NCBI GenBank assembly: GCA_964549075.1
Contig: CAZJUB010000052.1
Span: forward strand, 1 to 18,509
Reading direction: 5' to 3'
From: an uncultured archaeon
GTDB taxonomy: Archaea; Asgardarchaeota; Heimdallarchaeia; Heimdallarchaeales; Heimdallarchaeaceae
DNA: 18,509 nucleotides
The notes under the pieces are model-generated. The model saw only the letters and a list, made by a program, of their open reading frames with translations. It was not told the DNA's origin and ran no database searches. This document shows positions 3 to 17,940 of this stretch, one piece after another. The first letter of the stretch is position 1, and every line of letters starts with the position of its first letter. A program made the position numbers and the translations under genes.

Positions 3-1050
3 GGAATACCCTTAGTTAAATCGTCTTTCACCACTTCAACAGGTAAAGTACTTGAAGGAAAATGGGAATTACCTGAATCTTTACAAGATGAAACAGGAAT
101 AATTTTCGCTTCAGCCTTTCCAGGATATGATAATTTAATAAAAGAAATTCAAGAGTATCAAGCTCTGGAAAATGACAAACAATTCAGTAGAAACTTCCTT
201 TTTAAAATTCTGTCTATGGGACATTCACAGTTTGCTCAACTCATCAAAGCAAAAGGACCTAACACTCAAATTAATGCTGCTTGCGCTTCTACAACTCAAG
301 CAGTTGGTATTGCAGAAGATTGGATTAGGACTGGACGATGTAATAGAGTAATTGTAATAGCAGCAGATGATGCTTCAAGTGAACATCTATTACCTTGGAT
401 TGGATCTGGTTTTCTGGTTGCTGGTGGAGTCACAACAGAAGAAGAAGTTCAAAACGCTGCTCTTCCATTTGGTAAAAATAGACATGGATTAATTATCGGA
501 GCTGCAGCTGCTGCATTAGTTCTTGAAAATGAAGATTCATATAAAAAGAGGGGAACAAAGCCAATTGTTGATTTATTGGGCTCTTCATTTGTAAACAGCG
601 GTTTTCATGGTTCAAGACTAGATGTTTCACATATTTCTGATGTTTTCCAAAAATTCATTGAAAGAATAGAGAAAGAGTATAACATTCCAAGAGAAGAACT
701 CGCAAGAGATGGTATATTTGTCTCGCATGAAACCTACACTCCTGCACGAGGAGGAAGTGCTGAATCTGAGATAGAAGCATTAAGAAGAGTGTTTGGAAAG
801 GATGCTAATAAAATTACAATTGTTAATACAAAAGGTTTTACCGGACATGCAATGGGAGCTGGACTTGAAGAATGTGTAGCAATAAAAGCTATGGAAAAAG
901 GAAAGATTCCACCAATAGCAAATTTTGATAAGATTGATCCTCTTTTCTCAGATTTAAAATTCTCTAAAGGAGAAGATAGAAGAGTAAAATATGCAATACG
1001 CTTAGCAGCTGGTTTTGGATCACAAGTCGCTTTTACAGCTTTTAGATTAA
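3..1050 (+). other. Ketosynthase domain (C-terminal part) with intact Cys-His-His triad
   Basis: Cys codon 282-284 (NAACAS), His 726-728 (SHETYT), His 846-848 (TGHAMG). The closing AAGFGSQVA motif corresponds to SFGFGG of FabF/FabB. Boundaries approximate. Confidence 0.9.
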
Positions 1051-4000
1051 ATACTTACGAAGATAGATTTGATGTAATTCTTCACGAAGAATGGTTAAAT
1101 CAATTAGGAGGTTCAATAGCTAGTATTTTCCAAGATGGTCGAGTTCTCAAAATGAACATCACACACAAGATTCCAGAAACTACTGAAATTATTTCTCAAA
1201 TTCCTTCCACAAAACCAGTTACCTCTACAGAAATTCTCTCAAGTGTCATCTCAATAATTTCTGAGACAACAGGTTATGAACCTAATCTAGTCGAAGCAGA
1301 AATGCATCTAGAAGAAGATTTGGGAATTGATACAGTTAAACAAGCTGAAATTTTTGGGATTCTCAGAGAAAAATGGAATTTGAGTTTAGATGATTCACTA
1401 AGTCTTGCTGAATTTACAACTCCGTTAAAAATTGCAGAATACATTCAGATGAATGCACAAAATGTAAAAATTTCTACAAGTGCTTCAACTAAAACAACAT
1501 CTTCTAACAAATCAGATTTGGCAAACAAAATACGAGAAGTTATCTCGGAAACTACTGGATATGATCAAGATTTGATAGAATTTGATATGGATTTGGAAGA
1601 GGATTTAGGTATAGATACAATTAAACAAGCAGAGATTTTTGGAGATATAAGAGAAATATTTGATCTCCCAATAGATGATACTGTTAGTCTAGCTGAATTT
1701 CGTACTATAACTGATATTACCAACTATGTAGTAGAAACTATCGGTGATAATCAGCAGATTGAAGTAATATCTGATGAGAAATCTGTAGAAAAAACTGAAG
1801 TTAAAGAAGAAGAACAGGATGAAGATTCGGTAAGAGTAGATAGGTTGATAACACTACCAAAACCTCTAGACAAACATATTGCAGAGAAAATCAAAATAAA
1901 AGAGACCTCTGCTCTTATAATAAACATTAATTCATCATTACAGAAAGAGCTTTCTGCAGAATTAGAAAACAAATTTGCTTCTATTAAAAGTTTTGATTTA
2001 CTAAAAGAACAAATTTCCACATTTGAAGGGAATCAGTTTGGTTTTTACATAGTTTTAGTTCCTGATTTCAGAGAAAAACAAGGACAAGAAGATCAAGAGA
2101 TTTACAGGCAATTATTCTCTCTCTTTCAACAGCTTGAACTCGATACTAACAAGAAAATTCTTGCTATTTCGAATGAGAATTTCTTTGGTCATATTGACTC
2201 TGCTAATCCTATTTCTGGAGGTATCTCTGGATTCATTAAAACACTTGGTATTGAATTTGAAATGAAGTATAAACATGTCTATTCTGATAAAGTTCCAGAA
2301 ATCGTTCAAGAGTTAGAATTTTGGGATGATAGTTCAGAAATTGCTTATTACAAGAAAAATCGTTTCGCTTTATCAAATCTTAACATTAGTAAATCGCTCA
2401 CTCAGTCTTCTAAAATTGATATAAAAGAAAATGATTTGTTATTAGTATCAGGTGGAGGACGAGGAATTACCTATAAATGTCTTGAATCTTTGAGTTCTAT
2501 TATTAAACCTAAAGTAGCTATCTTAGGTCTTGAAGATATTTCTGAAATAACACCTGAAATGTTAATTTGGTCAGAAAGTGATTTGGTTAGAAGAAAAGAA
2601 GAACTTATAGAACAAATGAAAGAAACAGAAGAGAAGTTAACTCCAGTTTTAATTGAGAAACAATGGAGTAAATTCCTCTTCAATCTCGAAGTTTATCGTA
2701 ATTTAGAGAAACTTAGAAAAATGAAAATACAAGTAGAATATAGAAGTGTAGATGTTACAAAAAAAGAGGCTGTTGAAAACGCTATAAAGGATGTTGAAAA
2801 GCATTTTAACACTTCAATCACACACATCGTACACGGTGCTGGACTTGAAGAATCAAAGTCTTTTAAAAAGAAGAACATAGATTTTTCAAATCTCATTGTT
2901 GCTGTAAAAGTTCAAGGTATTTGGAACATTCTTAACTCAATAAACATGAATAAACTCAAGCGTGTTATCTGTTTTACTTCTATTGCTGGAAGATATGGTA
3001 ACCGAGGTCAAGTTGATTATTCTTTTGCAAATGGTTATCTTGCAAGATTATGTTGGATGTTAAATCAAAAAGGAATATCATCTCTTGCATGTGATTGGTC
3101 AGCTTGGGGAGGTGTGGGTATGGCAACTCGTGGATCTATAATGGATATTCTAACTTCTCAAGGAATTCATCCAATCTCATTAGAGCAAGGAACTGATATT
3201 TTTGTAAGATTATTCCTTAACACAATAGGAAGCGAAGTCATTGTTTCTTGTGGTTTGGGACCGTTTGAACAAATGAATGAAGTTAAGGCAAAATTAAATG
3301 AAAATCAATACCCAATGTTAGAAAGTTATGAGTATGCGAATTCAGAGTTCCAAGTAAAGAAAACTCTCTCTGTTACTACTGATTTATATCTACGAGATCA
3401 TCAGATACAGCAGACTCCTATCTTTCCAGCTGTAATGGGAATCGAAATGTTTGCAGAGTGTATTGATTTCATAAATAAGACAAAACCAACTGCTTTCAGT
3501 GATCTTGAGTTCAACACTGCTTTGAAGATTCATCCAGATAAATCAAAAGAAATCAAAGTTCTGTATAAACCAGAGACCGAAGAATTATTTCTTAAATCAG
3601 AATTTGTAGCAAAAATAATTCCAAGTAACAAAAGAGAAATCGAACACTTCAAAGGTAAAGTTGCACATATTACTAAAACAAACAAATCTAAACCTACCTC
3701 TTCAGAAATACGAGACTCGAATATTGATTTATTGTCAAAAGAAGATATTTATTCCTTCTTCTTCCATGGTAAAAGCTTTCAGGTGTTAGAATGTTTAAAG
3801 GAACTAAATGGAAGCCAAGCTATAACAAAAATAAAATTATCCAAGAGTAAACTTTTTTCAAATACAAAAAATAAAACTCTTCTGAATCCTCTTGCAATAG
3901 AAGCAGCTTTACAAACATCAGGATTATACGATTATATCGTCAATAATAAAACATCACTTCCTTCACGAATAGATTATTTGAAAATATACAATACAAAGAA

Positions 4001-4889
4001 ACCAAAATATATTGTTTCTAAATTCAGAGAAATAACAAACACTCATAGTATTTTTGATGTAGAAGTTTTAGACCAGAGTAGCAAAATTATCTTATCTATA
4101 TCTGGTTTAAGTATGATTCATACACAATTCTCCTTTAATGAGACTTCAAAATTACAGGAAAAGTTGGAATCAACACTACAATATTGGAATATATCTAATT
4201 CTTTGAGTAGTGAAAATTTCAGAATAATTCCAGTAAGTGTTGTATCTACTTTCTCTCAAGGAGATAAATCAATTATATCTGCATATCTGACAGAAAATGA
4301 AAAGACCAAATATGATGAAATTAAAAATCCTAAAAGAAAAACAGAATATCTTTCTGGAATAATAGCTTCTAAGGAGCTATACTCTAAATTGCAAAACAAA
4401 AGCTTCAAATTAAAGAATATTGAAATCAGAAAGGAAAAGAAAGGTCAACCTTATTTCTTTGATCTTAAATCAAAGAAAAGAAGTGATTTACATTTATCAA
4501 TTACTCATTCAGGTGATTTTGCTATTGCAGCAATTGATAAAACACCTATAGGAGTTGATTTAGAGCAAATTGAAGAAAGAAGTGAATCTTTCTATAAAGA
4601 AGCTTTTACTGAAAAAGAAAGGAATGAAATTTCTTTAAATGCAGAAAAAGGAACAATTTATTGGACTATCAAAGAAGCGATAACTAAAGCTTTAGGAGAA
4701 GGCTTGCATCTGAACCTTCATGATATTGAAATATCAGAAAATCAAGAAAAATCTTCATACACAATTGGTTTCTCTTCAAAGATTGCTGAAACAGTCCCTT
4801 ATAGTCCTGAAGAATTTGAGATTACAAATAAAAGTTTCCAGAATTATACTATAAGTTACTGCCAGATAAAGAAGGAGGAAACTAAATGA
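3..4889 (+). CDS. Large type I polyketide/fatty-acid synthase-like multidomain protein, 5'-truncated by the window (visible: KS-ACP-ACP-KR-DH-PPTase)
   Basis: The frame is open from base 3 (GIPLVKSSF...WELPESLQDETGIIFASAFPG...FLFKILSMGHSQ), so Met216 in the ORF track is internal. KS motifs: NAACAS, SHETYT, KGFTGHAMG, AAGFG. Two ACP repeats (EEDLGIDT). KR motifs: SGGGRGI and DYSFAN. DH motifs: DHQIQQTPIFP and FHGKSFQ. PPTase motifs: SITHS, GVDLE, WTIKEA. Confidence 0.93.
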   Translation, partial: GIPLVKSSFTTSTGKVLEGKWELPESLQDETGIIFASAFPGYDNLIKEIQEYQALENDKQFSRNFLFKILSMGHSQFAQLIKAKGPNTQINAACASTTQAVGIAEDWIRTGRCNRVIVIAADDASSEHLLPWIGSGFLVAGGVTTEEEVQNAALPFGKNRHGLIIGAAAAALVLENEDSYKKRGTKPIVDLLGSSFVNSGFHGSRLDVSHISDVFQKFIERIEKEYNIPREELARDGIFVSHETYTPARGGSAESEIEALRRVFGKDANKITIVNTKGFTGHAMGAGLEECVAIKAMEKGKIPPIANFDKIDPLFSDLKFSKGEDRRVKYAIRLAAGFGSQVAFTAFRLNTYEDRFDVILHEEWLNQLGGSIASIFQDGRVLKMNITHKIPETTEIISQIPSTKPVTSTEILSSVISIISETTGYEPNLVEAEMHLEEDLGIDTVKQAEIFGILREKWNLSLDDSLSLAEFTTPLKIAEYIQMNAQNVKISTSASTKTTSSNKSDLANKIREVISETTGYDQDLIEFDMDLEEDLGIDTIKQAEIFGDIREIFDLPIDDTVSLAEFRTITDITNYVVETIGDNQQIEVISDEKSVEKTEVKEEEQDEDSVRVDRLITLPKPLDKHIAEKIKIKETSALIININSSLQKELSAELENKFASIKSFDLLKEQISTFEGNQFGFYIVLVPDFREKQGQEDQEIYRQLFSLFQQLELDTNKKILAISNENFFGHIDSANPISGGISGFIKTLGIEFEMKYKHVYSDKVPEIVQELEFWDDSSEIAYYKKNRFALSNLNISKSLTQSSKIDIKENDLLLVSGGGRGITYKCLESLSSIIKPKVAILGLEDISEITPEMLIWSESDLVRRKEELIEQMKETEEKLTPVLIEKQWSKFLFNLEVYRNLEKLRKMKIQVEYRSVDVTKKEAVENAIKDVEKHFNTSITHIVHGAGLEESKSFKKKNIDFSNLIVAVKVQGIWNILNSINMNKLKRVICFTSIAGRYGNRGQVDYSFANGYLARLCWMLNQKGISSLACDWSAWGGVGMATRGSIMDILTSQGIHPISLEQGTDIFVRLFLNTIGSEVIVSCGLGPFEQMNEVKAKLNENQYPMLESYEYANSEFQVKKTLSVTTDLYLRDHQIQQTPIFPAVMGIEMFAECIDFINKTKPTAFSDLEFNTALKIHPDKSKEIKVLYKPETEELFLKSEFVAKIIPSNKREIEHFKGKVAHITKTNKSKPTSSEIRDSNIDLLSKEDIYSFFFHGKSFQVLECLKELNGSQAITKIKLSKSKLFSNTKNKTLLNPLAIEAALQTSGLYDYIVNNKTSLPSRIDYLKIYNTKKPKYIVSKFREITNTHSIFDVEVLDQSSKIILSISGLSMIHTQFSFNETSKLQEKLESTLQYWNISNSLSSENFRIIPVSVVSTFSQGDKSIISAYLTENEKTKYDEIKNPKRKTEYLSGIIASKELYSKLQNKSFKLKNIEIRKEKKGQPYFFDLKSKKRSDLHLSITHSGDFAIAAIDKTPIGVDLEQIEERSESFYKEAFTEKERNEISLNAEKGTIYWTIKEAITKALGEGLHLNLHDIEISENQEKSSYTIGFSSKIAETVPYSPEEFEITNKSFQNYTISYCQIKKEETK
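1221..1740 (+). repeat. Two tandem acyl-carrier-protein domains (about 1221-1455 and 1512-1740)
   Basis: ISETTGYEPNLVEAEMHLEEDLGIDTVKQAEIFG...SLAEF versus ISETTGYDQDLIEFDMDLEEDLGIDTIKQAEIFG...SLAEF, joined by a Ser/Thr-rich linker. Resembles PfaA-type tandem ACPs. Confidence 0.88.
2430..3260 (+). other. Ketoreductase (PfaA/PKS-type SDR) catalytic domain
   Basis: LLVSGGGRGIT Rossmann motif, HGAG, FTSIAGRYGNRGQVDYSFAN (Tyr 3018-3020, YxxxN), WSAW-GGVGM. Boundaries approximate. Confidence 0.9.
3310..4125 (+). other. Double hot-dog dehydratase (PKS DH-like) domain
   Basis: YLRDHQIQQTPIFPAVMGIE (His 3399-3401), FFHGKSFQVL, LNPLAIEAALQ, LPSRID. Boundaries approximate. Confidence 0.8.
4270..4880 (+). 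other. C-terminal fused 4'-phosphopantetheinyl transferase (Sfp-like)
   Basis: YLTENE...KRKTEYLSGIIASKE, KGQP, LSITHSG, IGVDLE (GVDLE at 4551-4565), FTEKE, YWTIKEAITKALGEG. Confidence 0.9.
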
Positions 4890-5650
4890 AAATAGAGCCT
4901 ACTGATATAAATTTCAGACAAGAAACTATTAATGGTGTTTTATATCTCCCAGAGACTATAAAATCTGCACCATTAGTTGTTCATTTAAATGGTATGCCAG
5001 GATTGGAACCAGAGAAGGAAGGCGAAAGATATGCTGAAGATTTAGTAAGTAATGGAATTGCCTATTATGCATTTGATTATACAGGTGTAAGAAATAGTAC
5101 TGGGGTGTTTGGATATTATTATTCACAAGAGAATATCAGTAAGATTCTATCTTATTTAGTCCATCACTCAAAAATAGAACCAACAAAAATAGCAATTCTT
5201 GGAGAAAGCTTTGGGGGAGCTATGGGAATATCTCATACTGCAAGAGATAAAAGAATAAAATGTCTAGCAGTCAGATCTCCTGTATATGATACAGATAAAG
5301 TTGCAAAATTGAAAATATTCGATGGACTATCGCAATTGTGGAAAAGAAGCAAACAAATGAGGTTTCCTGAAGTAAATTTAAAAAAATGGTTTCTACAACA
5401 AACTTCTCAGTATAATCCAGCAAAGCTTATTCAGAGTATACACTGTCCTATTAGAGTAATTACTGGAACAAAAGATGAGATTCTTTCTGTGGATCAAATC
5501 AAAAAACTCTATAGCCAACTACCTGCTGATACTGAAAAAGAACTTAAAATAATTGAGAATGCTGACCACAATTTTTCAGATCTTAAACACTTTGAAATTA
5601 TGAAAAAATATGTTGTCCAATTCTTTAAAGAATCACTCATCGCAGCTTAA
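4886..5650 (+). CDS. Alpha/beta-fold serine hydrolase; candidate thioesterase for the upstream synthase
   Basis: NGMPG oxyanion region, GESFG nucleophile elbow (Ser 5207-5209), GTKDE Asp, ADHNF His. ATGA overlap with the synthase stop and AAGGAGG at 4872-4878. The thioesterase role is inferred from context only. Confidence 0.85.
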   Translation: MKIEPTDINFRQETINGVLYLPETIKSAPLVVHLNGMPGLEPEKEGERYAEDLVSNGIAYYAFDYTGVRNSTGVFGYYYSQENISKILSYLVHHSKIEPTKIAILGESFGGAMGISHTARDKRIKCLAVRSPVYDTDKVAKLKIFDGLSQLWKRSKQMRFPEVNLKKWFLQQTSQYNPAKLIQSIHCPIRVITGTKDEILSVDQIKKLYSQLPADTEKELKIIENADHNFSDLKHFEIMKKYVVQFFKESLIAA

Positions 5651-6126
5651 GACTGTATGATGAGTAATTTTTGATCCTGTTCAACATTATCATTTTCTTT
5701 TACTTCAATTTGGACAATTTCTCCATCATCAGGTGCAAATATCCTATTCCGCATTTTCATTGCTTCAAGAATAAGAAGTTCTTGATCTTTGGACACACTT
5801 TGACCTTGTTTGACAAGTATTTTTGTTATTTTACCAGGTATAGGAGCTATAACTTTGATCTCACGTTTAGCAATTTCTGAAGACTTCTTACTCAAAACTG
5901 GAATATATGGTTTAATTGTAAATTCTGTTTTTTCTCCATCTATTAAGAATTCATCATTTGATATCTCTATAGTAAATCTTGTACCATCAACATCAACTTT
6001 ATAGATAGCATTTATCCCTTGTTTTATTTCTGCAGTAAAAAGCTCCCCATCAACATTAATGTCACCGTTAGAGAGTAACTCAATAATGTAATCTCTATCT
6101 TTGAATCTAACCTTTTTCTTTGTCAT
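5647..6126 (-). CDS. Biotin carboxyl carrier protein of an acyl-CoA carboxylase
   Basis: VIAPIPGKI...LEAMKMRNRI biotinylation motif. ATG at 6126 with AAGGTG upstream is preferred over GTG at 6135. Confidence 0.92.
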   Translation of the reverse strand: MTKKKVRFKDRDYIIELLSNGDINVDGELFTAEIKQGINAIYKVDVDGTRFTIEISNDEFLIDGEKTEFTIKPYIPVLSKKSSEIAKREIKVIAPIPGKITKILVKQGQSVSKDQELLILEAMKMRNRIFAPDDGEIVQIEVKENDNVEQDQKLLIIQS

Positions 6127-6137
6127 AGGTGGCACCT

Positions 6138-7640
6138 TTAAAGATAACCTTTTTGTTGTTCAAATTTACTCTGTTCTCGCCACCTATTGAAATTTTCTGG
6201 TTTATCATGCACGACCAAAATATCATTTTCTTGTGATTCTTTGTGAGTAGAATATGCTTTAAACAAAGCTACTAGTCTCAGTTTTTCGTAATGGTTGAGA
6301 ATCTCATTAATTTTATTGTGTTTTAGAAATTCTGTTGTAATTTTTCTTTTCAAAAATTCTGGTGTCTCTATTATAGCTTTGTGGAGTGATATATTTGTTA
6401 TTAATCCAGAAATCGCTAATTCATTCAATGCTAATTTTGATTTTTGAATTGCATCTTGTCGATTCTCTCCTTTAACTATAAGCTTACCAACTAAAGAATC
6501 ATATTGATTTGGTAAAATATAATTAGGATAAACAAAAGTATCAAATCTCACTTCATTCCCACCAGGTATATTCACCCCTGATATCTTTCCTGATTGGGGG
6601 TAGAAAGCTTTCAAAGGATCTTCTGCGTTTATTCTGAACTCAAAAGCATGACCAGAGAACTTTATGTCTTTCTGAGTATAAGTTAATTCTTCATTATTTG
6701 CAATCTTAAGTTGTTGAACGACGATATCTATCCCCGTAATCATTTCTGAAACGGGATGTTCAACTTGAATTCTTGGATTTATTTCATTGAAATAGAGTTT
6801 ATTATTTTTCCAAAGAAATTCAGCTGTTCCAGCATTTCTATAAGAGATATTTTTTGCTAAATTACAGATTTTTTCTCCTAAAATTTCTCTCTTTCTGGCT
6901 GTAATAAAGGATGGTGCTTCTTCAATGATTTTCTGATGTATTCTTTGTATCGAGCATTCACGATCGCCTAAATGGATAACATTTCCGTAATTATCAGCAA
7001 GAAATTGAATCTCGATGTGCCTTGGAGATTGAATGAATTTTTCAATAAACACTTCTTTTCTCCCAAAGAATTTTTTAGCAATAGATTGACATCCCATTAA
7101 ACTGATTTCTAAACTCTCTGGATTTTCAACAATTTCCATTCCTCTACCCCCTCCACCAAATGCTGCCTTTATTATAATAGGATATCCAATTTTTAATGCG
7201 ATTTTTTCTGCTTCTTCAACAGAATCTATATACCCAAGAGAACCTGGAACTGTTTGAATGCCCACTTCTCTTGCCATTTGTTTAGCTTCAATTTTATCTC
7301 CAAGTTTTTTAATCACCGAAGGTGAAGGTCCAATGAAAATCATTCCATTTTTTTCTACTTCATCAGCAAAAATTGCACTTTCACTTAAAAATCCATAACC
7401 TGGATGAATAGCATCAGTATTAGACTCTGTTGCAATATTGATTATCTTTTCTGTGTTTAAGTAAGTATCTTCAACAGAACCATTTCCTAAACAATAAGCT
7501 TCATCTGCCATTCTTACATGAAGAGCAGAAGAATCTGTATCAGAAAAAATAGCTACAGTTTTGAAATCAAGTAATCTACAAGCTCTAATAATTCGAATTG
7601 CTATTTCACCACGATTTGCAATAAGAACTGTAGAGAGCAT
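6138..7640 (-). CDS. accC: Biotin carboxylase subunit (acetyl/propionyl-CoA carboxylase, AccC/PccA-like)
   Basis: VLIANRGEIA, IHPGYGFLSE, KAAFGGGGRGM, RECSIQR, EINPRIQVEH, RINAEDP, YDSLVGKLIV. ATG at 7640 is preferred over TTG at 7646. Substrate specificity is not determinable. Confidence 0.93.
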   Translation of the reverse strand: MLSTVLIANRGEIAIRIIRACRLLDFKTVAIFSDTDSSALHVRMADEAYCLGNGSVEDTYLNTEKIINIATESNTDAIHPGYGFLSESAIFADEVEKNGMIFIGPSPSVIKKLGDKIEAKQMAREVGIQTVPGSLGYIDSVEEAEKIALKIGYPIIIKAAFGGGGRGMEIVENPESLEISLMGCQSIAKKFFGRKEVFIEKFIQSPRHIEIQFLADNYGNVIHLGDRECSIQRIHQKIIEEAPSFITARKREILGEKICNLAKNISYRNAGTAEFLWKNNKLYFNEINPRIQVEHPVSEMITGIDIVVQQLKIANNEELTYTQKDIKFSGHAFEFRINAEDPLKAFYPQSGKISGVNIPGGNEVRFDTFVYPNYILPNQYDSLVGKLIVKGENRQDAIQKSKLALNELAISGLITNISLHKAIIETPEFLKRKITTEFLKHNKINEILNHYEKLRLVALFKAYSTHKESQENDILVVHDKPENFNRWREQSKFEQQKGYL

Positions 7641-7662
7641 GGACAATATTTACTTGGGCATT

Positions 7663-7725: not shown

Positions 7726-8958
7726 TTAATCGAGAAATGATATTGATTTGTCTGTAGTAACCGACAAGGCATCTAACATATATGACCATCTTTTACTAAG
7801 TTTTTCAAAAGCATTTTCAGATTGATTATCAAAAGTCTTGTTCTCTTCAAGTTGAAGGTTGAATAAATGAAGTATTTTCTCTTTCTTGTCAAAACTAGCT
7901 TCTACCCTTCCAAAAAAATGCCCTTCATAAAGTAGAGGAAGGACATAGTATCCCCATTTACGATCTTTAGGTATTTTGTAAACTTCCCAAACATATTCAA
8001 AATCGAAAATTTTCTGTGCAAATTCTCGATCCCAAATTAATGGATCTAGAGGAGCAATTGCTTTCATTTCTTGGTCAATATTCTGGTGGAGATAATTTTC
8101 CCAGTTAGCTGGTACCGCACAGTAAATGTTCGTGTCTTCAATATTAACAATTCTCGGACTTTCAGGATCATCATTTTTTTCAAACCATTTTGGTGATAAT
8201 CTTTTTCTTTTCCCCAAAACCAGTCCTTTGCTCTTAGACCAAGTTATTTTTCCTAAATTAATTAAAGGATAGGATTTTTGTTTGATAAGAAATTTTTGAT
8301 AGTAAATCTCCTCATCATTAAGGTTGCTTTCATTCAAAAAAGATGAATCAAAAAAATCCTCTACAAGTCCATAAGTTTTTCTCCAGTATTCATCTCTGTC
8401 ATGGATAGCAACTTTACCTAAAAGCCATAATAACTCAAGTGACATCCCAGCTAAATTACTTGTTTTCCAAAAAGATAAATCAGGTTTAATTTTAGCTAAT
8501 TCTTTAAGATCAGCTGCTTTTGATGGACCATTGGTTCTAAGAAAATTTATTGTCTTCTCTAAGAAATCTGACATTTTTTCCTCTATCTTGTCGATTCTAG
8601 TTTGATAATATTTGTGTAAATATTTCTTTTTCATTTGAGGAAGAAATATAGGAAAATAATCTTTTGAAATTGCCTTTAAATTAGGAAAATAACATTCAAA
8701 AACTTCTCGTTGAGGATATGCTAGTTTCTGAAAAAGATTAATTTTATATTTAGTCATTCTGGATAAGAAAAATAAATCATGATTTCGTCCAGCTGGATTC
8801 AAAGGATCTAGTTGAACTGAAGCTTGTTCATGAAAAACCTTCATAGTATCTTTTTCATCTTGACCATGCCATTGATGAAGGTGTGTTCCTACAATTGCAA
8901 TCTTTTGGAGTTCTTCTTTTGATACTTCAGTAACAAGTTCATCAAACATTTCTTCCAC
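7726..8958 (-). CDS. ycaQ: YcaQ/AlkZ-family (HTH_42) interstrand-crosslink DNA glycosylase
   Basis: N-terminal QLDP (QxD) motif with RNHDL. C-terminal PLDPLIWDR...FDFEYVWEVY...RKWGYYVLPLL...GRVE signature. Start is either GTG 8958 or ATG 8949. Confidence 0.85.
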   Translation of the reverse strand: MEEMFDELVTEVSKEELQKIAIVGTHLHQWHGQDEKDTMKVFHEQASVQLDPLNPAGRNHDLFFLSRMTKYKINLFQKLAYPQREVFECYFPNLKAISKDYFPIFLPQMKKKYLHKYYQTRIDKIEEKMSDFLEKTINFLRTNGPSKAADLKELAKIKPDLSFWKTSNLAGMSLELLWLLGKVAIHDRDEYWRKTYGLVEDFFDSSFLNESNLNDEEIYYQKFLIKQKSYPLINLGKITWSKSKGLVLGKRKRLSPKWFEKNDDPESPRIVNIEDTNIYCAVPANWENYLHQNIDQEMKAIAPLDPLIWDREFAQKIFDFEYVWEVYKIPKDRKWGYYVLPLLYEGHFFGRVEASFDKKEKILHLFNLQLEENKTFDNQSENAFEKLSKRWSYMLDALSVTTDKSISFLD

Positions 8959-9024: not shown

Positions 9025-10410
9025 TTAATTTTGAGTAGATATATTAATACCTTTTACTTTTATCTTTGGTGTTCTCATAAATCCATTGGAACATTCTAAT
9101 TCTTTGGTCATTCCAGTTATGTTCATCAATAATCCTAGGATATTTCCACCAATTGTAACGTTGACAAGAGGTGTGGTTAGTTCTCCATTCTCTATTAATT
9201 GAGCACCTTTAGCGACACCACTGAAAATACCATTTTCAGCTCTGAAGGAACCTGAAAAATATTCAAATGTGATACCTGTTTTAATATCTTCTAGAAGCTC
9301 TTCATAGGTTTGATCTCCTCCACGAATTATTGGCGCATTCGGAAATATGTTACTAGGAGGATTCATAAAACGAGGACCTCCAAGAGATCTCCAAGAATTA
9401 CCTGTTGATGTAGCATTCATTTTACTTGCCCTTAATTCATCAAAAAGGAAATTTTCTAGAATACCGTCTTTAATTATTGATGTTTGTTTTGTAGCTGTAC
9501 CTTCATCATCAAATGATCTAGCACCTCCACCTATATCAGAATTGAGAGAATCATCAACCATACTGAATTCTTGAATTGCCACTGTATCTGCTAATTTGTC
9601 TTTCCACATGGAGCGTTGTTGGAGAACATTATGAGCGGCGATAGCTTGAAAAATTACAATTCCTATAGGATTGAACATACTATCTTTTTGGAATACAACT
9701 GTATCCGATTCTATTTTGGAAGGAGCGATCGCAGATATATTTCGAACAGCTCTTTGAGTGAGTTCTTTTCCAAATTTGGTTAAGTCAACACTTTTTGGAT
9801 CATGGGTGAAGAAGTCATCAAATACAAACGATCCTACTTTTTCACCTTCCCTTGGAACAACAAAAAAGCCACCAGCATAGTTATTAGATTTCTCAAATGC
9901 TTCTACTCCTTGGGAATTAACTATTCCATACCATTCTTCTTGTTTTGTTAAACTACTCAAATTAGTCCTAACATCAACAGTCGCCTCTATCATTGGTGTT
10001 AAGATAGTTTTAGCATCTTCTATTAACTCGTCAATTGTAAGATTTGCAACTGAGGAAGTATAAATGCCAGAAATTTGTTTATATTTAGATGGTTTAGGTA
10101 ATCTCAATCCCGGATTAGAAGGCGCTACAGAAGCAATACCCAGCGCATCATCAGCTGTTGCTTTTAGCGATTCTAAATCACTTTTGTTACAATAAGAGAA
10201 TCCTTCTGAGTCACCTTTTATAATTCTAATTGAAAAACCTAGTTCTTCCTTCAATCTTTCATTTGCTATTGATTGACCTTCTGTCATAACTTGAGTTAAA
10301 GAATTCATAAATGAAAATACTTCAACAGCATCTGCTTTCTTTGAAAGAGCATAATCTACTGTTTTATGAGATAGTGAAAGCATCTCTTCTTTTGAAATTT
10401 CTGTTGTCAT
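9025..10410 (-). CDS. pmbA: PmbA/TldE-family protein
   Basis: FDDEGT, IIKDGILENFL, STGNS, GIFSG, IENGEL motifs. No HExxH. Directly downstream of tldD with a GGAGGT RBS. Confidence 0.9.
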   Translation of the reverse strand: MTTEISKEEMLSLSHKTVDYALSKKADAVEVFSFMNSLTQVMTEGQSIANERLKEELGFSIRIIKGDSEGFSYCNKSDLESLKATADDALGIASVAPSNPGLRLPKPSKYKQISGIYTSSVANLTIDELIEDAKTILTPMIEATVDVRTNLSSLTKQEEWYGIVNSQGVEAFEKSNNYAGGFFVVPREGEKVGSFVFDDFFTHDPKSVDLTKFGKELTQRAVRNISAIAPSKIESDTVVFQKDSMFNPIGIVIFQAIAAHNVLQQRSMWKDKLADTVAIQEFSMVDDSLNSDIGGGARSFDDEGTATKQTSIIKDGILENFLFDELRASKMNATSTGNSWRSLGGPRFMNPPSNIFPNAPIIRGGDQTYEELLEDIKTGITFEYFSGSFRAENGIFSGVAKGAQLIENGELTTPLVNVTIGGNILGLLMNITGMTKELECSNGFMRTPKIKVKGINISTQN

Positions 10411-10411
10411 C

Positions 10412-11818
10412 TTAATTACCTCCAGCTAACATAGCTTTAACAGCTAGAAAAGGACCACCTGCATCGACTTTTGCTGGTTGTTCTTTACCACAAAAACCTG
10501 CTCCTAAATTTGTATCAAAATTATTACCAATTCCAATAACGTTACTTAAAACCTCAAACGCATTTCCAGTAAGAACAGGATTTTGGTATAATTCTTCTGT
10601 TAATTCTCCATTTTTGATGGCATAGCATTCAACAGCACCAAACATAAATTCACTTGAGCTGTCAGCTTGACCATTTTGTAATGAACATAGGAAGAATCCT
10701 TCGCCAATAGCTTCATATAATTCTTCAAGACTCATATCTCCCGCTTCTATGTAGGTATTTCTCATTCGAACTATAGGTTCATCTCTGAAAGTATATGCTC
10801 GAGCATTTCCTGTAGCTTCGACACCTAATTCAGCTGCGAAAGCTCTATTTGTCATATAGCTATTCATTATACCTTCTTTAATGATGTAAGTTTTCTTTCC
10901 TTTCACACCTTCATCATCGAAAGGAAGCCATCCTGAACCTTCCCAATTTGATCCTTTCAAAGTAGGTGAATCAACTAAACTGATTCTTTCATCACATACT
11001 TTTTGTCCAAGTTTGCCTTTAGTAAATGATCCTGCTTGAACTAAATCAGCCTCTGCTGTGTGTCCAACTGCTTCATGAGCAAGAACACCAACTAATTGAT
11101 GATCCAGTAACAAACTAGCTACCCCACTAGGAGGAAGTGAGGCTTTAACTAACCTAGTTGCCTTATCAGCACTCTCATCCATTATCTGACTAAGAGGATG
11201 CAAATCAAAGAATTCTGCACCACAAGTGTGAGACCAAGAAGTATAGCCACTAGCCATTTTTCCTTCTTCAATAGCTACACAGTACGCAATAACTGTTGGT
11301 TTCATGTCTTCCCATTCTACACGTGTCCCTTCATTGGTTACAACCATTCTCTTATCGATAACTTCATTATAGTTGATCATATAACTTTTAACAAATTCAT
11401 AATCTTTAACGACCTTTGTAGAGTCTATAAGTTTCTGAATTTTTTCTTCAACGGAAATATCTTTCAAATGTATCTTTCGAGGAGAGATAGCTTCATCTTC
11501 AATAATATCAACTTCAGCTAAAGATATTTTAGAATCTTTATGAGAAGCAGAGCCTTGAGCCATTTTAACAGCATTTTTAACAGATTTAAAAATACTTTCT
11601 TGATCAGTTTTACTTGTAGCAGCTAAACCCCAGCTTCCATCAACCAAAACTCTTGTACATATACCTTCTCTGGAGCCAGTTGTGCTAATTAACTCTCCAT
11701 CCCTATACATGAAATTAGCAAGGTATTTGTCTTGGTAACGAAATTCGACATAGTCAGCACCAAGTTTTTCACCTTCATCTAATCCTTTTACTAATAGATC
11801 TTGATTATAGAAATCCAT
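10412..11818 (-). CDS. tldD: TldD-family metalloprotease
   Basis: AHEAVGHTAEAD zinc motif, FDDEG, TGNARA, RMRNTYI, CGK. ATG 11818 preceded by AGGTGAG is preferred over the track start at 11863. Confidence 0.92.
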   Translation of the reverse strand: MDFYNQDLLVKGLDEGEKLGADYVEFRYQDKYLANFMYRDGELISTTGSREGICTRVLVDGSWGLAATSKTDQESIFKSVKNAVKMAQGSASHKDSKISLAEVDIIEDEAISPRKIHLKDISVEEKIQKLIDSTKVVKDYEFVKSYMINYNEVIDKRMVVTNEGTRVEWEDMKPTVIAYCVAIEEGKMASGYTSWSHTCGAEFFDLHPLSQIMDESADKATRLVKASLPPSGVASLLLDHQLVGVLAHEAVGHTAEADLVQAGSFTKGKLGQKVCDERISLVDSPTLKGSNWEGSGWLPFDDEGVKGKKTYIIKEGIMNSYMTNRAFAAELGVEATGNARAYTFRDEPIVRMRNTYIEAGDMSLEELYEAIGEGFFLCSLQNGQADSSSEFMFGAVECYAIKNGELTEELYQNPVLTGNAFEVLSNVIGIGNNFDTNLGAGFCGKEQPAKVDAGGPFLAVKAMLAGGN

Positions 11819-11942
11819 TAACTCACCTATTTTCTTAAAAACAAAAAGAATTAATAAAGACACTGGTCAGGAGTGACCATCAAATTGAGATTGAATTAAA
11901 CATTCTTGATCGTGAGAAACTTTATTTCTTTTTCAAGGGATT

Positions 11943-13190
11943 TCATGAAGTTAGAAACATATCTAATTTTGTTTGTCTCTTATTATAATCATACATTTTT
12001 GATTTGTTCTTCCAGTATTTGACAGGATATTGAAAATAGCTTGAAAGAAGATTAAAAGCTTGGTCGATTGAATCAGCAGTAATATAATTCTTCTTCATTG
12101 CTCCTCTAACACCTACTCTAATAACCCATACACCTAATGGGAATCGATATTCATCTGAGATTTCTCGAAGCACAATTACTTGCGCTTGTCTTTGAATTTT
12201 GAGTAAATATTCTGTTACTGCTAAGCGAGCTGCATAATATGCTCCTGTAACATTAGACGCATATTCTGTTCGACCGTCATACCATTCATAATCACCCATT
12301 CCAATATCGATATTACTCGGATTCATGAAAGCTCCTTTAAACCAAACTTCGACCATCTCATAAGACCAAACACTAGGTACTAAAATGATGACAAATCTAT
12401 TCCCAAAGAAAACATTTGAGAAAATTCTTATTTCTCCTAATTCTTGGAATTTTTTTGTTTTTTCCGCATTTTGTTTTGAAATTATATCATCTACTGCTGT
12501 TATACTCCATCTCGTTGGAACTAGTTTTCTGTTTTCCTTTTTTCCAAGCATTCCAGCTGAAAAAACTCGAGTAATTGTATAAACATCAATTTTATCTTTA
12601 CTTAGAGTTTTAACAGCATCAGTCGCAATTAAATCTGTATCATAATAAGACTTCTCTATAACATTTATAGGTGTTTGATTTTCAGTTAAATCTATTTTCT
12701 TAATTGGAGCTATAGGGCCATATGGAGCCATTCTCTCATCTAAAGAAATCCTGGGAATTATCTTTTTCTCAAGTGTGACTTCTACATCGACTGCTTTCTT
12801 ACCAAGCAGCATTTCATGACTTTTTTGAATAATATCAGAATCCAGTGGATGTTTCACATTGATCTTTGATCGTGTTCTAAGAAGTGAAATTCTCATTTTT
12901 ACTATGTCTTCTTGAGTTTTCTTGATCCAATTATCTGCATTGTCGATATAATCAGAACCTAATCTATCAACTGTTAACATCGGTCCTGCATTTATTTGTG
13001 GATATCCTGACCATCCTACGAAGAATGCTGGTGGAGTAAAAGAATCATCAAGATTTTCTATTTTAGGCTGGTCAATTGAATACTTTCTAGACCATTGTTG
13101 TAATAATGGACAGTTCCTTCTCCCACATAACATTCTAGATGTCTTACAGACTACACATAATTCGAAATTTATGGGTGAATCCTCAGACAT
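11943..13190 (-). CDS. nreA: Archaeal DNA repair protein Nre
   Basis: N-terminal CxxCK...LCGxxxCP, GYP, RKLVPTRWSITAVD, YYAARLAV, PLGVWVIR, and C-terminal PIP box QTKLDMF. Confidence 0.93.
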   Translation of the reverse strand: MSEDSPINFELCVVCKTSRMLCGRRNCPLLQQWSRKYSIDQPKIENLDDSFTPPAFFVGWSGYPQINAGPMLTVDRLGSDYIDNADNWIKKTQEDIVKMRISLLRTRSKINVKHPLDSDIIQKSHEMLLGKKAVDVEVTLEKKIIPRISLDERMAPYGPIAPIKKIDLTENQTPINVIEKSYYDTDLIATDAVKTLSKDKIDVYTITRVFSAGMLGKKENRKLVPTRWSITAVDDIISKQNAEKTKKFQELGEIRIFSNVFFGNRFVIILVPSVWSYEMVEVWFKGAFMNPSNIDIGMGDYEWYDGRTEYASNVTGAYYAARLAVTEYLLKIQRQAQVIVLREISDEYRFPLGVWVIRVGVRGAMKKNYITADSIDQAFNLLSSYFQYPVKYWKNKSKMYDYNKRQTKLDMFLTS

Positions 13191-13297: not shown

Positions 13298-13882
13298 ATG
13301 AGCTACCTTGAAGACGAAATAGATAAAGATAATAAACTAGTAAAAGCAGTAGAAAATGGTGGTTTTGGATTAAAACTACTCTTTTTAGGATTAGCTCAAA
13401 CTGGAAAATCCTCAATCATTCAGGTAATTTTTGAAGATAAACCTCCTGAAACAACTAAGAAAATTCAAGCAACGATAGGAGTCAGAAGAAAATTACTCGA
13501 ATTTTCAAATTTGTCTCTAAATGTATATGATGTTGGAGGACAAATAACCTATCTAGAAGAAGCTTTTATCGATCTCAGAGAAAGTATCTTCTCCCATATA
13601 AAAACTATGTTTTTTGTTGTTGATATGTCCAAATTAAATGAATTTAATACAGCTAAACTGTATTTCGATAGGGCAATTAAGAATTTAAGTGAATATAGTC
13701 CAGAAGCACGATTACACGTATTAGCTCACAAAAGCGATTTAATTCCTAAAGAACAAAGAACCAAAGCAATTGATCTTATTGCTGAGTTGTTCGAATTGGA
13801 TCTTTATCCTAATGTTGAAATTCATGAAACCTCTATTTATGAACCTACACTATTCAGCGCTATTGAACATGCAATAAAATAA
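13298..13882 (+). CDS. Rag/Gtr1-like small GTPase (G-domain only)
   Basis: G1 GLAQTGKSSI followed by VIF, G2 ATIG, G3 DVGGQ, FVVD, G4 HKSD, G5 TSIY. The HKxD and TSI(Y/W) pattern is typical of the Rag/Gtr family. Confidence 0.85.
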   Translation: MSYLEDEIDKDNKLVKAVENGGFGLKLLFLGLAQTGKSSIIQVIFEDKPPETTKKIQATIGVRRKLLEFSNLSLNVYDVGGQITYLEEAFIDLRESIFSHIKTMFFVVDMSKLNEFNTAKLYFDRAIKNLSEYSPEARLHVLAHKSDLIPKEQRTKAIDLIAELFELDLYPNVEIHETSIYEPTLFSAIEHAIK

Positions 13883-17385: not shown

Positions 17386-17940
17386 ATGAGCATGTTTGCA
17401 TCTTTATTTTCGAGAACAAAACAAGAGAAAAAAGCTAAAGTTTTAATTCTTGGTTTAGCAGCAGCTGGTAAGACTACATTAACTAAATATTTACGATATG
17501 GAGAATATGTTGCTGATACAATGCCAACAATAGGGCAAAATGTGGATTCTCTTGAATATGAAGGATGGAGGATAACAACCATTGATGTAGCAGGGCAACA
17601 AGACTTTAGGTTTCTATGGGATGCACATTATCCTGGAACTTCAGCAGTGATTTTTGTTATAGACGCAGCTGATATAGAAGCACTTCCCGAAGCTCGAGAT
17701 ATTCTAAAGAAACACGTTTTTAATAATCCTCAATTATCAGATGTTCCAGTTTTAATTATTGCAAACAAACAAGATTTAGCAGGAGCTGTAGAAGCACCAT
17801 TACTTATACAACTTCTTGGCTTGCATTTAGAAATGACTGATAGAACTTTTGCTGTCTTTGATGCAAGTATTCTTTATGGAAGTGGAGTTGTAGAAGCATT
17901 TTCTTGGGTAGTAAATCAGTTAGAATTGAAGAAAAATTAA
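17386..17940 (+). CDS. Arf/Sar-family-like small GTPase
   Basis: KVLILGLAAAGKTT, TMPTIGQNV, DVAGQ, FRFLW, VIFVIDAAD, ANKQDL, GVVEAFSW. N-terminal MFASLFS amphipathic-looking segment. Confidence 0.92.
   Translation: MSMFASLFSRTKQEKKAKVLILGLAAAGKTTLTKYLRYGEYVADTMPTIGQNVDSLEYEGWRITTIDVAGQQDFRFLWDAHYPGTSAVIFVIDAADIEALPEARDILKKHVFNNPQLSDVPVLIIANKQDLAGAVEAPLLIQLLGLHLEMTDRTFAVFDASILYGSGVVEAFSWVVNQLELKKN

Follow-up and report, generated by a model that had tools for sequence, protein, structure and literature searches.

In textbook acyl carrier proteins (ACPs) the swinging arm is attached to a serine. This serine is treated as invariant in sequence patterns and annotation rules, and carrier domains with another residue in its place are called 'inactive'. 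PfaA of the polyunsaturated fatty acid (PUFA) synthases has tandem ACPs of the pattern TGYP...DLGID-x-[IV]K..E, followed by a ketoreductase (KR) and a dehydratase (DH) of polyketide synthase (PKS) type. The enediyne PKSs (PKSE; CalE8, SgcE) are iterative enzymes of the order ketosynthase (KS), acyltransferase (AT), ACP, KR and DH, with a C-terminal integrated 4'-phosphopantetheinyl transferase (PPTase) that self-activates the ACP; they have a single serine-type ACP, neither an enoyl reductase (ER) nor a second KS, a hotdog thioesterase as partner and a polyene as product. The type I fatty acid synthases (FAS) of fungi and of Corynebacterium-Mycobacterium-Nocardia (CMN) bacteria run a complete cycle with an FMN-type (FabK/NMO-like) ER, a fused PPTase and one serine-type ACP. 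The Type R secondary lipid synthase, as the main text of Shulse & Allen 2011 (PMC3098273) describes it, is a pfaA homologue of the layout KS-MAT-'CLF'-ACP(3-6)-KR with a downstream PPTase and sometimes an acyl-CoA carboxylase (ACC) gene between the two; it is named there in Elusimicrobium minutum, Koribacter, Solibacter and Roseiflexus, and its product was not known to the authors. Here we report an Asgard variant of this known but uncharacterised family, with fused ER and PPTase, in which both ACPs have threonine at the attachment site. It is encoded by a megasynthase gene on contig C52 of an uncultured Heimdallarchaeial archaeon (3.2-Mb assembly of 217 contigs, 89.7% complete), of which we analysed the first 18,509 bases (the window); the start of the window coincides with the start of the contig, and the gene is cut there.

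The 3' part of the megasynthase gene lies at positions 3..4889 on the forward strand (frame +3) and encodes 1628 aa and a stop codon, in the domain order KS'-ACP-ACP-KR-DH-PPTase; the frame is open from the contig edge to 4889 under translation table 11. ACP domain 1 (aa 411-490; 1233..1472) was identified by phmmer alignment to the PDB chains of PigH and AcpM and is included in our ACP alignments A1 and A3. ACP domain 2 (aa 506-585; 1518..1757) contains the best Pfam PP-binding stretch (aa 509-576) and scored 35.5 bits in a search of the assembly (C52:1527-1730). The four-helix carrier profile (PF00550, PP-binding) is recognised at 44.6 bits, against a cut-off of 20.8, and the serine expected in a (D/H)S motif at the N-terminus of helix II is threonine in both domains. 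The first-pass annotation had read an ACA codon at each site, and codons, translation and PDB alignment agree: Thr444 (DLGIDTVKQ) is encoded at 1332..1334, corresponding to the invariant column T34 of alignment A3, and Thr539 (DLGIDTIKQ) at 1617..1619. The codons are GAT TTG GGA ATT GAT ACA GTT AAA CAA in ACP1 (translation context EEDLGIDTVKQAEIF) and GAT TTA GGT ATA GAT ACA ATT AAA CAA in ACP2 (EEDLGIDTIKQAEIF).

When the domains were compared by phmmer with all PDB chains (matches down to E 6.5e-12), both threonines fell on the phosphopantetheinylated serine of PigH (5y08: DLGVDS / DLGIDS), and also on that of AcpM (1klp: DLDIDS) and of a bacterial ACP (6lvt: DLGADS). ACP1 and ACP2 are 49% identical and thus diverged copies, and the earlier argument that a substitution shared by diverged copies speaks against error or decay has held up. 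Contigs of two public runs that were not flagged as possible sources (X6, X7) cover both threonine codons and show no difference within them, the only differences nearby being 1290 G>A and the synonymous 1337 T>A (GTT>GTA), and relatives carry threonine too. In the ACP alignment the invariant columns are T16, Y18, E30, L33, G34, I35, D36, T37, K39, Q40, A41 and T66. None of the alignment columns holds an invariant serine elsewhere in the domain, and the stretch around the threonine is more conserved than the remainder. Since independent contigs reproduce both codons and relatives share the residue, threonine at the carrier attachment site is a real substitution, not decay or error. An alternative genetic code is improbable, as all four ACN codons occur at the site among relatives and the frame is open under table 11.

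The other domains of the megasynthase are those of a complete fatty acid cycle. The second ketosynthase KS' (3..1052, N-terminus missing; Pfam ketoacyl-synt and Ketoacyl-synt_C), the 'CLF' of the Type R description, keeps its catalytic Cys (INAACAST), His (SHETYTPA) and His (KGFTGHAM) when aligned to FabF (1ox0). The KR region (aa 790-1110; 2370..3332; Pfam KR 94.2 bits) carries the motif YSFAN and lies within a match to the NCBIfam PfaA model (aa 762-1329), so that the KS triad and the KR tyrosine are intact, as the first-pass annotation had stated. A PKS-type dehydratase follows at 3339..4115 (PKS_DH_N and PS-DH, aa 1113-1192 and 1253-1371). The 5' part of the gene is on a second contig of the same assembly, C129 (5,904 bp, locus L008), where P0218 (1426 aa, 3-4280, reverse strand) runs off the contig end and contains a FabK/NMO-type ER, a KS and an AT. 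The ~3,380-aa frames of the genus suggest that ~330 aa are missing between C129 and the window, and a 10,148-nt contig of run X1 extends beyond window position 1 on the upstream side. Genomes of the same genus have the KR-DH match inside a single open frame of 3326-3395 aa, and the orthologue in G033 is complete, with 3382 aa and exactly two ACPs, both of the threonine type. On this comparison we assign the full enzyme the order ER-KS-AT-KS'-ACP-ACP-KR-DH-PPTase and a length of ~3,380 aa. It is thus predicted to hold every activity of the fatty acid cycle together with its own activating enzyme, with carboxylase genes on both sides. Its closest proteins carry the names Heimdall-, Thor-, Loki- and Promethearchaeota, which together with the neighbouring genes identifies the source as an Asgard archaeon.

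By its sequence features, the family corresponds to the Type R synthase as the published main text describes it. The E. minutum locus (L095) encodes four DTVKQA ACPs and is collinear with the window protein in BLASTP, with 37% identity over KS'-ACP-ACP (E 5e-141) and 27% over KR-DH (E 2e-56). Besides this homology the window protein shares with that description the layout KS-MAT-CLF-ACP(n)-KR, with n=2 instead of 3-6, and the downstream PPTase, which is here fused. The Asgard form departs from Type R as described in its additional N-terminal FabK/NMO-type ER, in having no more than two ACPs, in carrying the PPTase at its own C-terminus with an alpha/beta hydrolase gene next to it, and in keeping Cys/His/His in the 'CLF' domain. 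It also has the PfaA layout of tandem ACPs followed by KR and PKS-type DH. The PfaA model TIGR02813 is its best NCBIfam match, at scores below the cut-off of 1010.1 (270.7 bits for the window fragment, 883.8 for the complete G033 protein and 926 for the E. minutum protein). In an exhaustive profile search the serine-type PUFA ACPs (DSIKRVE) were the next relatives of the threonine-type domains. PfaA differs in its attachment serine (DSIKRVE, against DTVKQAE here), and the ER is fused in the Asgard form, unlike in the PfaA systems. The fused PPTase likens the synthase to the enediyne PKSE; an enediyne-PKS model was absent from the best 25 of 59 NCBIfam families matched by the fragment and from the 23 families matched at E<=1e-20 by the complete orthologue, which is not a direct comparison. 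Type I FAS of fungi and CMN bacteria is set apart by another domain order and fold.

We found no paper describing a threonine attachment site, in a literature search that left most subscription journals and supplements outside, so an earlier description is possible. The words 'threonine' and 'serine' have 0 occurrences in the main text of Shulse & Allen 2011 (PMC3098273), and the threonine site is thus undescribed there, supplements aside. A paper on the swf PKS of a sponge symbiont (PMC3908369) proved irrelevant to the question.

To establish how widely the threonine occurs, we combined searches that differ in what they select for. Homologues of the ACP region (120 proteins listed) have 337 threonines and 4 serines at ACP-like motifs; this search seeds on shared 5-mers and therefore favours the motif, so we do not count it as unbiased. 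With the KR region (aa 790-1110) as the seed, 96 new proteins were found among 120 listed; 87 of them have ACP matches, with 166 threonines, 10 serines and 3 unreadable sites, and the remaining nine are fragments that contain no ACP. Since a KR query cannot select on the ACP, this count is independent of the motif. The DT pair, whose conservation the first-pass annotation had left to an alignment of homologues, is therefore family-wide, and the close homologues, for which it had allowed serine throughout, have threonine.

An exhaustive HMMER profile search of 1.84 billion representatives returned 7,575 proteins at E<=1e-3; tightening the threshold to E<=1e-10 left 4,710 of them, and E<=1e-30 left 1,488. 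In 148 of the 150 best, 633 ACP domains divide into 415 with threonine, 208 with serine and 10 with another residue or a gap. The threonine is accompanied by DTVKQAE, the serine by DSIKRVE or DSIKKAQ as in the PUFA synthases; proteins that mix the two are rare, and most family members have threonine-type ACPs only, up to six or seven in tandem. A pattern scan of one genome per prokaryote species, which is seeded on the motif itself and biased accordingly, matched at least 599 stretches, 556 of which were confirmed among the matches listed. We kept 80 loci, from Chloroflexota, Elusimicrobiota, Acidobacteriota, Actinomycetota, Myxococcota, Gemmatimonadota, Calditrichota, Bacteroidota, Leptospiraceae and Lysobacterales; their large open reading frames (ORFs) contain 247 threonine motifs and one stray pattern match. 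The KR-DH region was detected at E<=1e-20 in 64 of 400 genomes of the Asgard phylum, with a patchy distribution over families (f1, 26/30; f4, 10/12; f7, 11/12; f19, 3/14; f20, 11/135). On these sequence comparisons the motif DLG[IV]DT[VI]KQAE marks a large clade that spans Asgard archaea, Marine Group II archaea and many bacterial phyla.

Synonymous changes at the site point to selection on the amino acid. The 77 sites in 32 Asgard loci are encoded by ACT (37), ACA (21), ACC (9), ACG (4) and the serine codon AGT (6); this count includes the window and second fetches of G033 and G015, and two further loci did not contain the region. Subtracting the second fetches leaves 72 sites, 4 of them serine. 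Every same-genus locus that covers the two ACPs has threonine in both, with all four ACN codons in use, a retention that by codon comparison is far beyond chance. Because synonymous codons turn over while the amino acid stays fixed and serine is one base change away, the pattern indicates purifying selection for threonine.

Serine and threonine have nevertheless exchanged within the family. In G015 and G016, which belong to the same family as the window genome, one protein holds serine, threonine and serine ACPs in that order with the same fused PPTase. On a tree of the KR region (FastTree, midpoint root; 169 rows after redundancy filtering: 145 threonine, 23 serine and 1 mixed), the residue label needs at least five changes, at least four of them forced by starred branches, compared with about 22 for shuffled labels. 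The exchange is thus rare but repeated, as expected if both residues do the same job.

The C-terminal domain of the megasynthase (aa 1396-1628; 4188..4886) is an Sfp-type PPTase by its profile and its two-lobed length, with two stretches matching Pfam ACPS (PF01648) at 72.5 bits; AASDHPPT_N reached 20.5 bits, under its cut-off of 27. The nearest solved chains are AcpS (1f7l) and Sfp (1qr0/4mrt). GVDLE and WTIKEAITK conform to the motifs GxDxE and WxxKExxxK, and when five fused Asgard PPTases are aligned with seven free-standing ones from bacteria, the columns G122, D124, E126, E129, R131, W159, K162, E163 and K167 are invariant in 12/12; we take the columns of the two motifs to be equivalent to the Mg-binding and base/Lys residues of Sfp. 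In bacteria the enzyme is a separate gene. Using a hidden Markov model (HMM) built from five PPTases of these loci, we found a PPTase ORF in 64 of the 80 bacterial loci, and in 42 of the 48 that have the full 20-kb length; in nearly all positive loci it lies on the same strand just downstream of the synthase.

The carriers available to this PPTase were sought by profile. In its own assembly the fused domain is the only PPTase match, and the carriers found in the contigs are the two threonine-type ACPs and a marginal ORF of 81 aa on contig C10 (locus L003, 1480-1725, forward strand). In five relatives (G134, G015, G204, G033, G081; G134 and G015 are single contigs, and G204 is 100% complete) all 14 of 14 PP-binding matches lie inside the megasynthase frame, as do five of the six PPTase matches, the sixth being a 208-aa ORF ~2.5 kb downstream in G015. 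All five ACPs of G134 have threonine, so its conserved PPTase has no detectable substrate except threonine-type ACPs. The first-pass annotation had offered two readings, a threonine-linked arm installed by the fused PPTase or structural ACPs with a serine-type ACP upstream. No upstream serine-type ACP was found, the complete G033 orthologue having two threonine-type ACPs only and the five relatives agreeing, which removes that part of the second reading; the comparative evidence favours the threonine-linked arm.

Two of these loci have features of their own. The 81-aa ORF on C10 matches PP-binding at 20.7-21.6 bits, has no serine in its motif EEDLDLTKDD, and stands directly after a luciferase-like monooxygenase gene, with a DUF1015 gene next on the opposite strand. 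We considered it as a serine-type carrier acting in trans and rejected it, given the site without serine and the marginal match; it may be a second, free-standing non-serine carrier-like protein. In G015 (L040, G015:C1:480000-499900) the synthase is split into two ORFs of 1510 and 2729 aa. The region at 15571-19515 holds two 254-aa ORFs, with the 208-aa PPTase ORF before the second. This ORF scores the same against the PPTase profile as the fused domain (52.8 bits), and the arrangement suggests that the 3' end of the locus was duplicated in tandem.

Even with no serine-type ACP upstream, the threonine-type ACPs might never be modified and might serve as structural or docking domains in a synthase that uses CoA thioesters or a carrier in trans. 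Archaea are not generally known to have ACP-dependent fatty acid synthesis, exchange of serine for threonine reportedly blocks modification in Escherichia coli ACP, and in G015 and G016 perhaps only the two serine copies work beside the one threonine copy. We regard this as unlikely: most members have threonine-type ACPs only, with no other carrier in the window's own assembly or the five relatives, a fused or adjacent PPTase with invariant catalytic residues would have no substrate, and the motif at the threonine is more conserved than the rest of the domain.

We therefore favour the reading that the threonine is a real phosphopantetheine attachment site, to which, on comparative grounds, we give a probability of about two in three. 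The threonine-type ACPs would then be working carrier domains, sister to the serine-type tandem ACPs of the PUFA synthases, in which the threonine hydroxyl of the motif DLG[IV]DT[VI]KQAE receives 4'-phosphopantetheine. The fused C-terminal Sfp-type PPTase, or the separate downstream gene product in bacteria, would move this group from CoA to the threonine. The resulting holo-ACPs would shuttle malonyl and acyl thioesters among AT, KS/KS', KR, DH and the N-terminal FabK/NMO-type ER, and the whole would be an iterative lipid synthase of FAS-like type that activates itself and is supplied through the acyl-CoA carboxylase genes at its flanks. The modification of the threonine, the product and its hydrolase-mediated release are inferred. 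Why threonine is used instead of serine is a matter of speculation; it might insulate the carriers from other PPTases or phosphodiesterases, or give a stabler phosphodiester.

Several points weigh against threonine as the attachment site. We know of no characterised threonine-linked phosphopantetheine; the S36T mutant of E. coli ACP is said not to be modified by AcpS; and a secondary alcohol is a more hindered nucleophile. The word-seeded and pattern-seeded searches are biased towards the motif, most of the genomes examined are incomplete metagenome-assembled genomes (MAGs), and the KR tree is a FastTree of one domain, rooted at its midpoint. In addition, linkage to a PPTase is typical of serine-type pfa clusters too, through pfaE (Shulse & Allen 2011, PMC3098273), so the linkage in our loci shows a need for a PPTase rather than a specificity of that PPTase for threonine.

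Alternatively, the threonine might bear another CoA-derived group or a direct O-acyl oxoester, or the arm might sit on T16, Y18 or T66. Selection specifically for threonine, with serine one base change away, suggests that the methyl group matters; VKQ covaries with threonine where serine types have IKR or IKK, which would alter the local surface; and the domain contains further invariant hydroxyl residues. A predicted complex of the PPTase with CoA, Mg and ACP1 bears on this. It scored 0.75 in three runs, compared with 0.00 for the best of three controls; the mark applied was reached by 58 of 80 solved complexes and by 2 of 110 mismatched pairs. At least 94% of contacts recur between the runs, with a pLDDT of 81-82 for the partner. 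Among the predicted contacts, PPTase Glu163 meets ACP Thr34 and Glu126 meets residue 35, so the model would place the threonine, and not the other residues, at Glu163. This is canonical docking by likeness and nothing more, because complexes of Sfp with a peptidyl carrier protein (PCP; 4mrt) and of AcpS with ACP (1f80) are solved and the pass may reflect memory. The partner is an Sfp-type PPTase of the usual kind, whose Mg and base residues are canonical, the TGY motif occurs in serine-type PUFA ACPs as well, and the repeated exchange of serine and threonine argues for the same chemistry, all of which makes a different modification or position improbable. A sequencing or assembly error or a decaying pseudogene can be set aside almost entirely, since, although the gene is split between two MAG contigs, its 1628-aa frame is open, both codons recur in contigs of other runs, and 30 related genomes have the same residue under varying synonymous codons, as do hundreds of proteins of other phyla.

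On balance we lean, if only slightly, towards the wider view that O-phosphopantetheinyl-threonine is natural and widespread, that a class made up of Type R and the Asgard and Marine Group II synthases uses threonine with its own PPTases, and that the Asgard enzyme is a self-contained, ACP-dependent type I FAS that activates itself and has its own malonyl-CoA supply. A conserved threonine class, if true, would change how carrier domains now called inactive are read in genome mining. It would also pair a carrier with a PPTase in a new way, perhaps orthogonal to Sfp and AcpS, for use in labelling and pathway engineering, and the motif is a concrete handle on the widespread Type R lipid-synthase family. 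That Asgard and Marine Group II archaea have a complete FAS-like enzyme dependent on ACPs matters for the 'lipid divide' and for models of how eukaryotes arose. If the wider view is true, the Asgard enzyme would count as direct evidence of an ability, among relatives of the eukaryotic host lineage, to build fatty acyl chains as bacteria and eukaryotes do.

Predicted hydrolase and carboxylase genes flank the synthase. An alpha/beta hydrolase gene (4886..5650, forward strand; Pfam Hydrolase_4 / Peptidase_S9 / BAAT_C) has a start that overlaps the megasynthase stop, and its product is a candidate product-release enzyme; a possible counterpart by position and size, an ORF of 254-268 aa, stands after the megasynthase in each of G033, G015 and G134. 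On the reverse strand, Pfam identifies a biotin carboxyl carrier protein (BCCP; 5647-6135) and a biotin carboxylase (6138-7646). On C129 a carboxyltransferase gene (4291-5712, reverse strand) precedes P0218, and the three together form, by annotation, a predicted acyl-CoA carboxylase set flanking the synthase. The order in G033 (carboxyltransferase, megasynthase and a 254-aa ORF, then BCCP, biotin carboxylase and an AlkZ-like gene on the opposite strand) equals, by ORF size and position, that of C129 joined to the window.

In bacteria, too, the synthase lies in a cassette. A Pfam run on 40 ORFs from six bacterial loci gave an acyl-CoA-dehydrogenase (ACAD)-like gene or a PfaD/NMO-type ER, followed by a megasynthase KS-AT-KS'-ACPn-KR-DH, often with a single-chain ACC of ~1,800-1,900 aa, and a PPTase in four of the six loci. 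Across the 80 bacterial loci an ACAD-like gene is present in 42, an ACC in 35 and an NMO-type ER in 16. The single-chain ACC is eukaryote-like, with the order BC-BCCP-ACC_central-CT (loci L104, L087, L085 and others). In L087, genes for electron-transfer flavoprotein (ETF) alpha and beta and a CCG-domain gene stand before the ACAD-like gene, upstream of the synthase, which suggests that in such loci ETF-linked enoyl reduction replaces the FabK/NMO-type ER of Chloroflexota and Asgard. Many Chloroflexota members (P0055 and similar Anaerolineae proteins; loci L043-L062) have an extra threonine-type ACP that separates the first KS from the AT (in one case at aa ~542 of 2760), besides the tandem ACPs before the KR; this layout, KS-ACP-AT-KS'-ACP-ACP-KR-DH, falls outside the Type R description in the main text of that paper.

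The remainder of the window encodes proteins of other functions. An AlkZ-like DNA glycosylase gene (7726-8958), two adjoining genes for TldD/PmbA-family metallopeptidases of 461 and 483 aa (9025-11863) and an archaeal Nre gene (11943-13190) lie on the reverse strand, and Pfam also identifies an aldehyde:ferredoxin oxidoreductase. Two eukaryotic signature proteins are encoded on the forward strand, a Gtr1/RagA-family small GTPase (13298-13882) and an Arf-family small GTPase (17386-17940).

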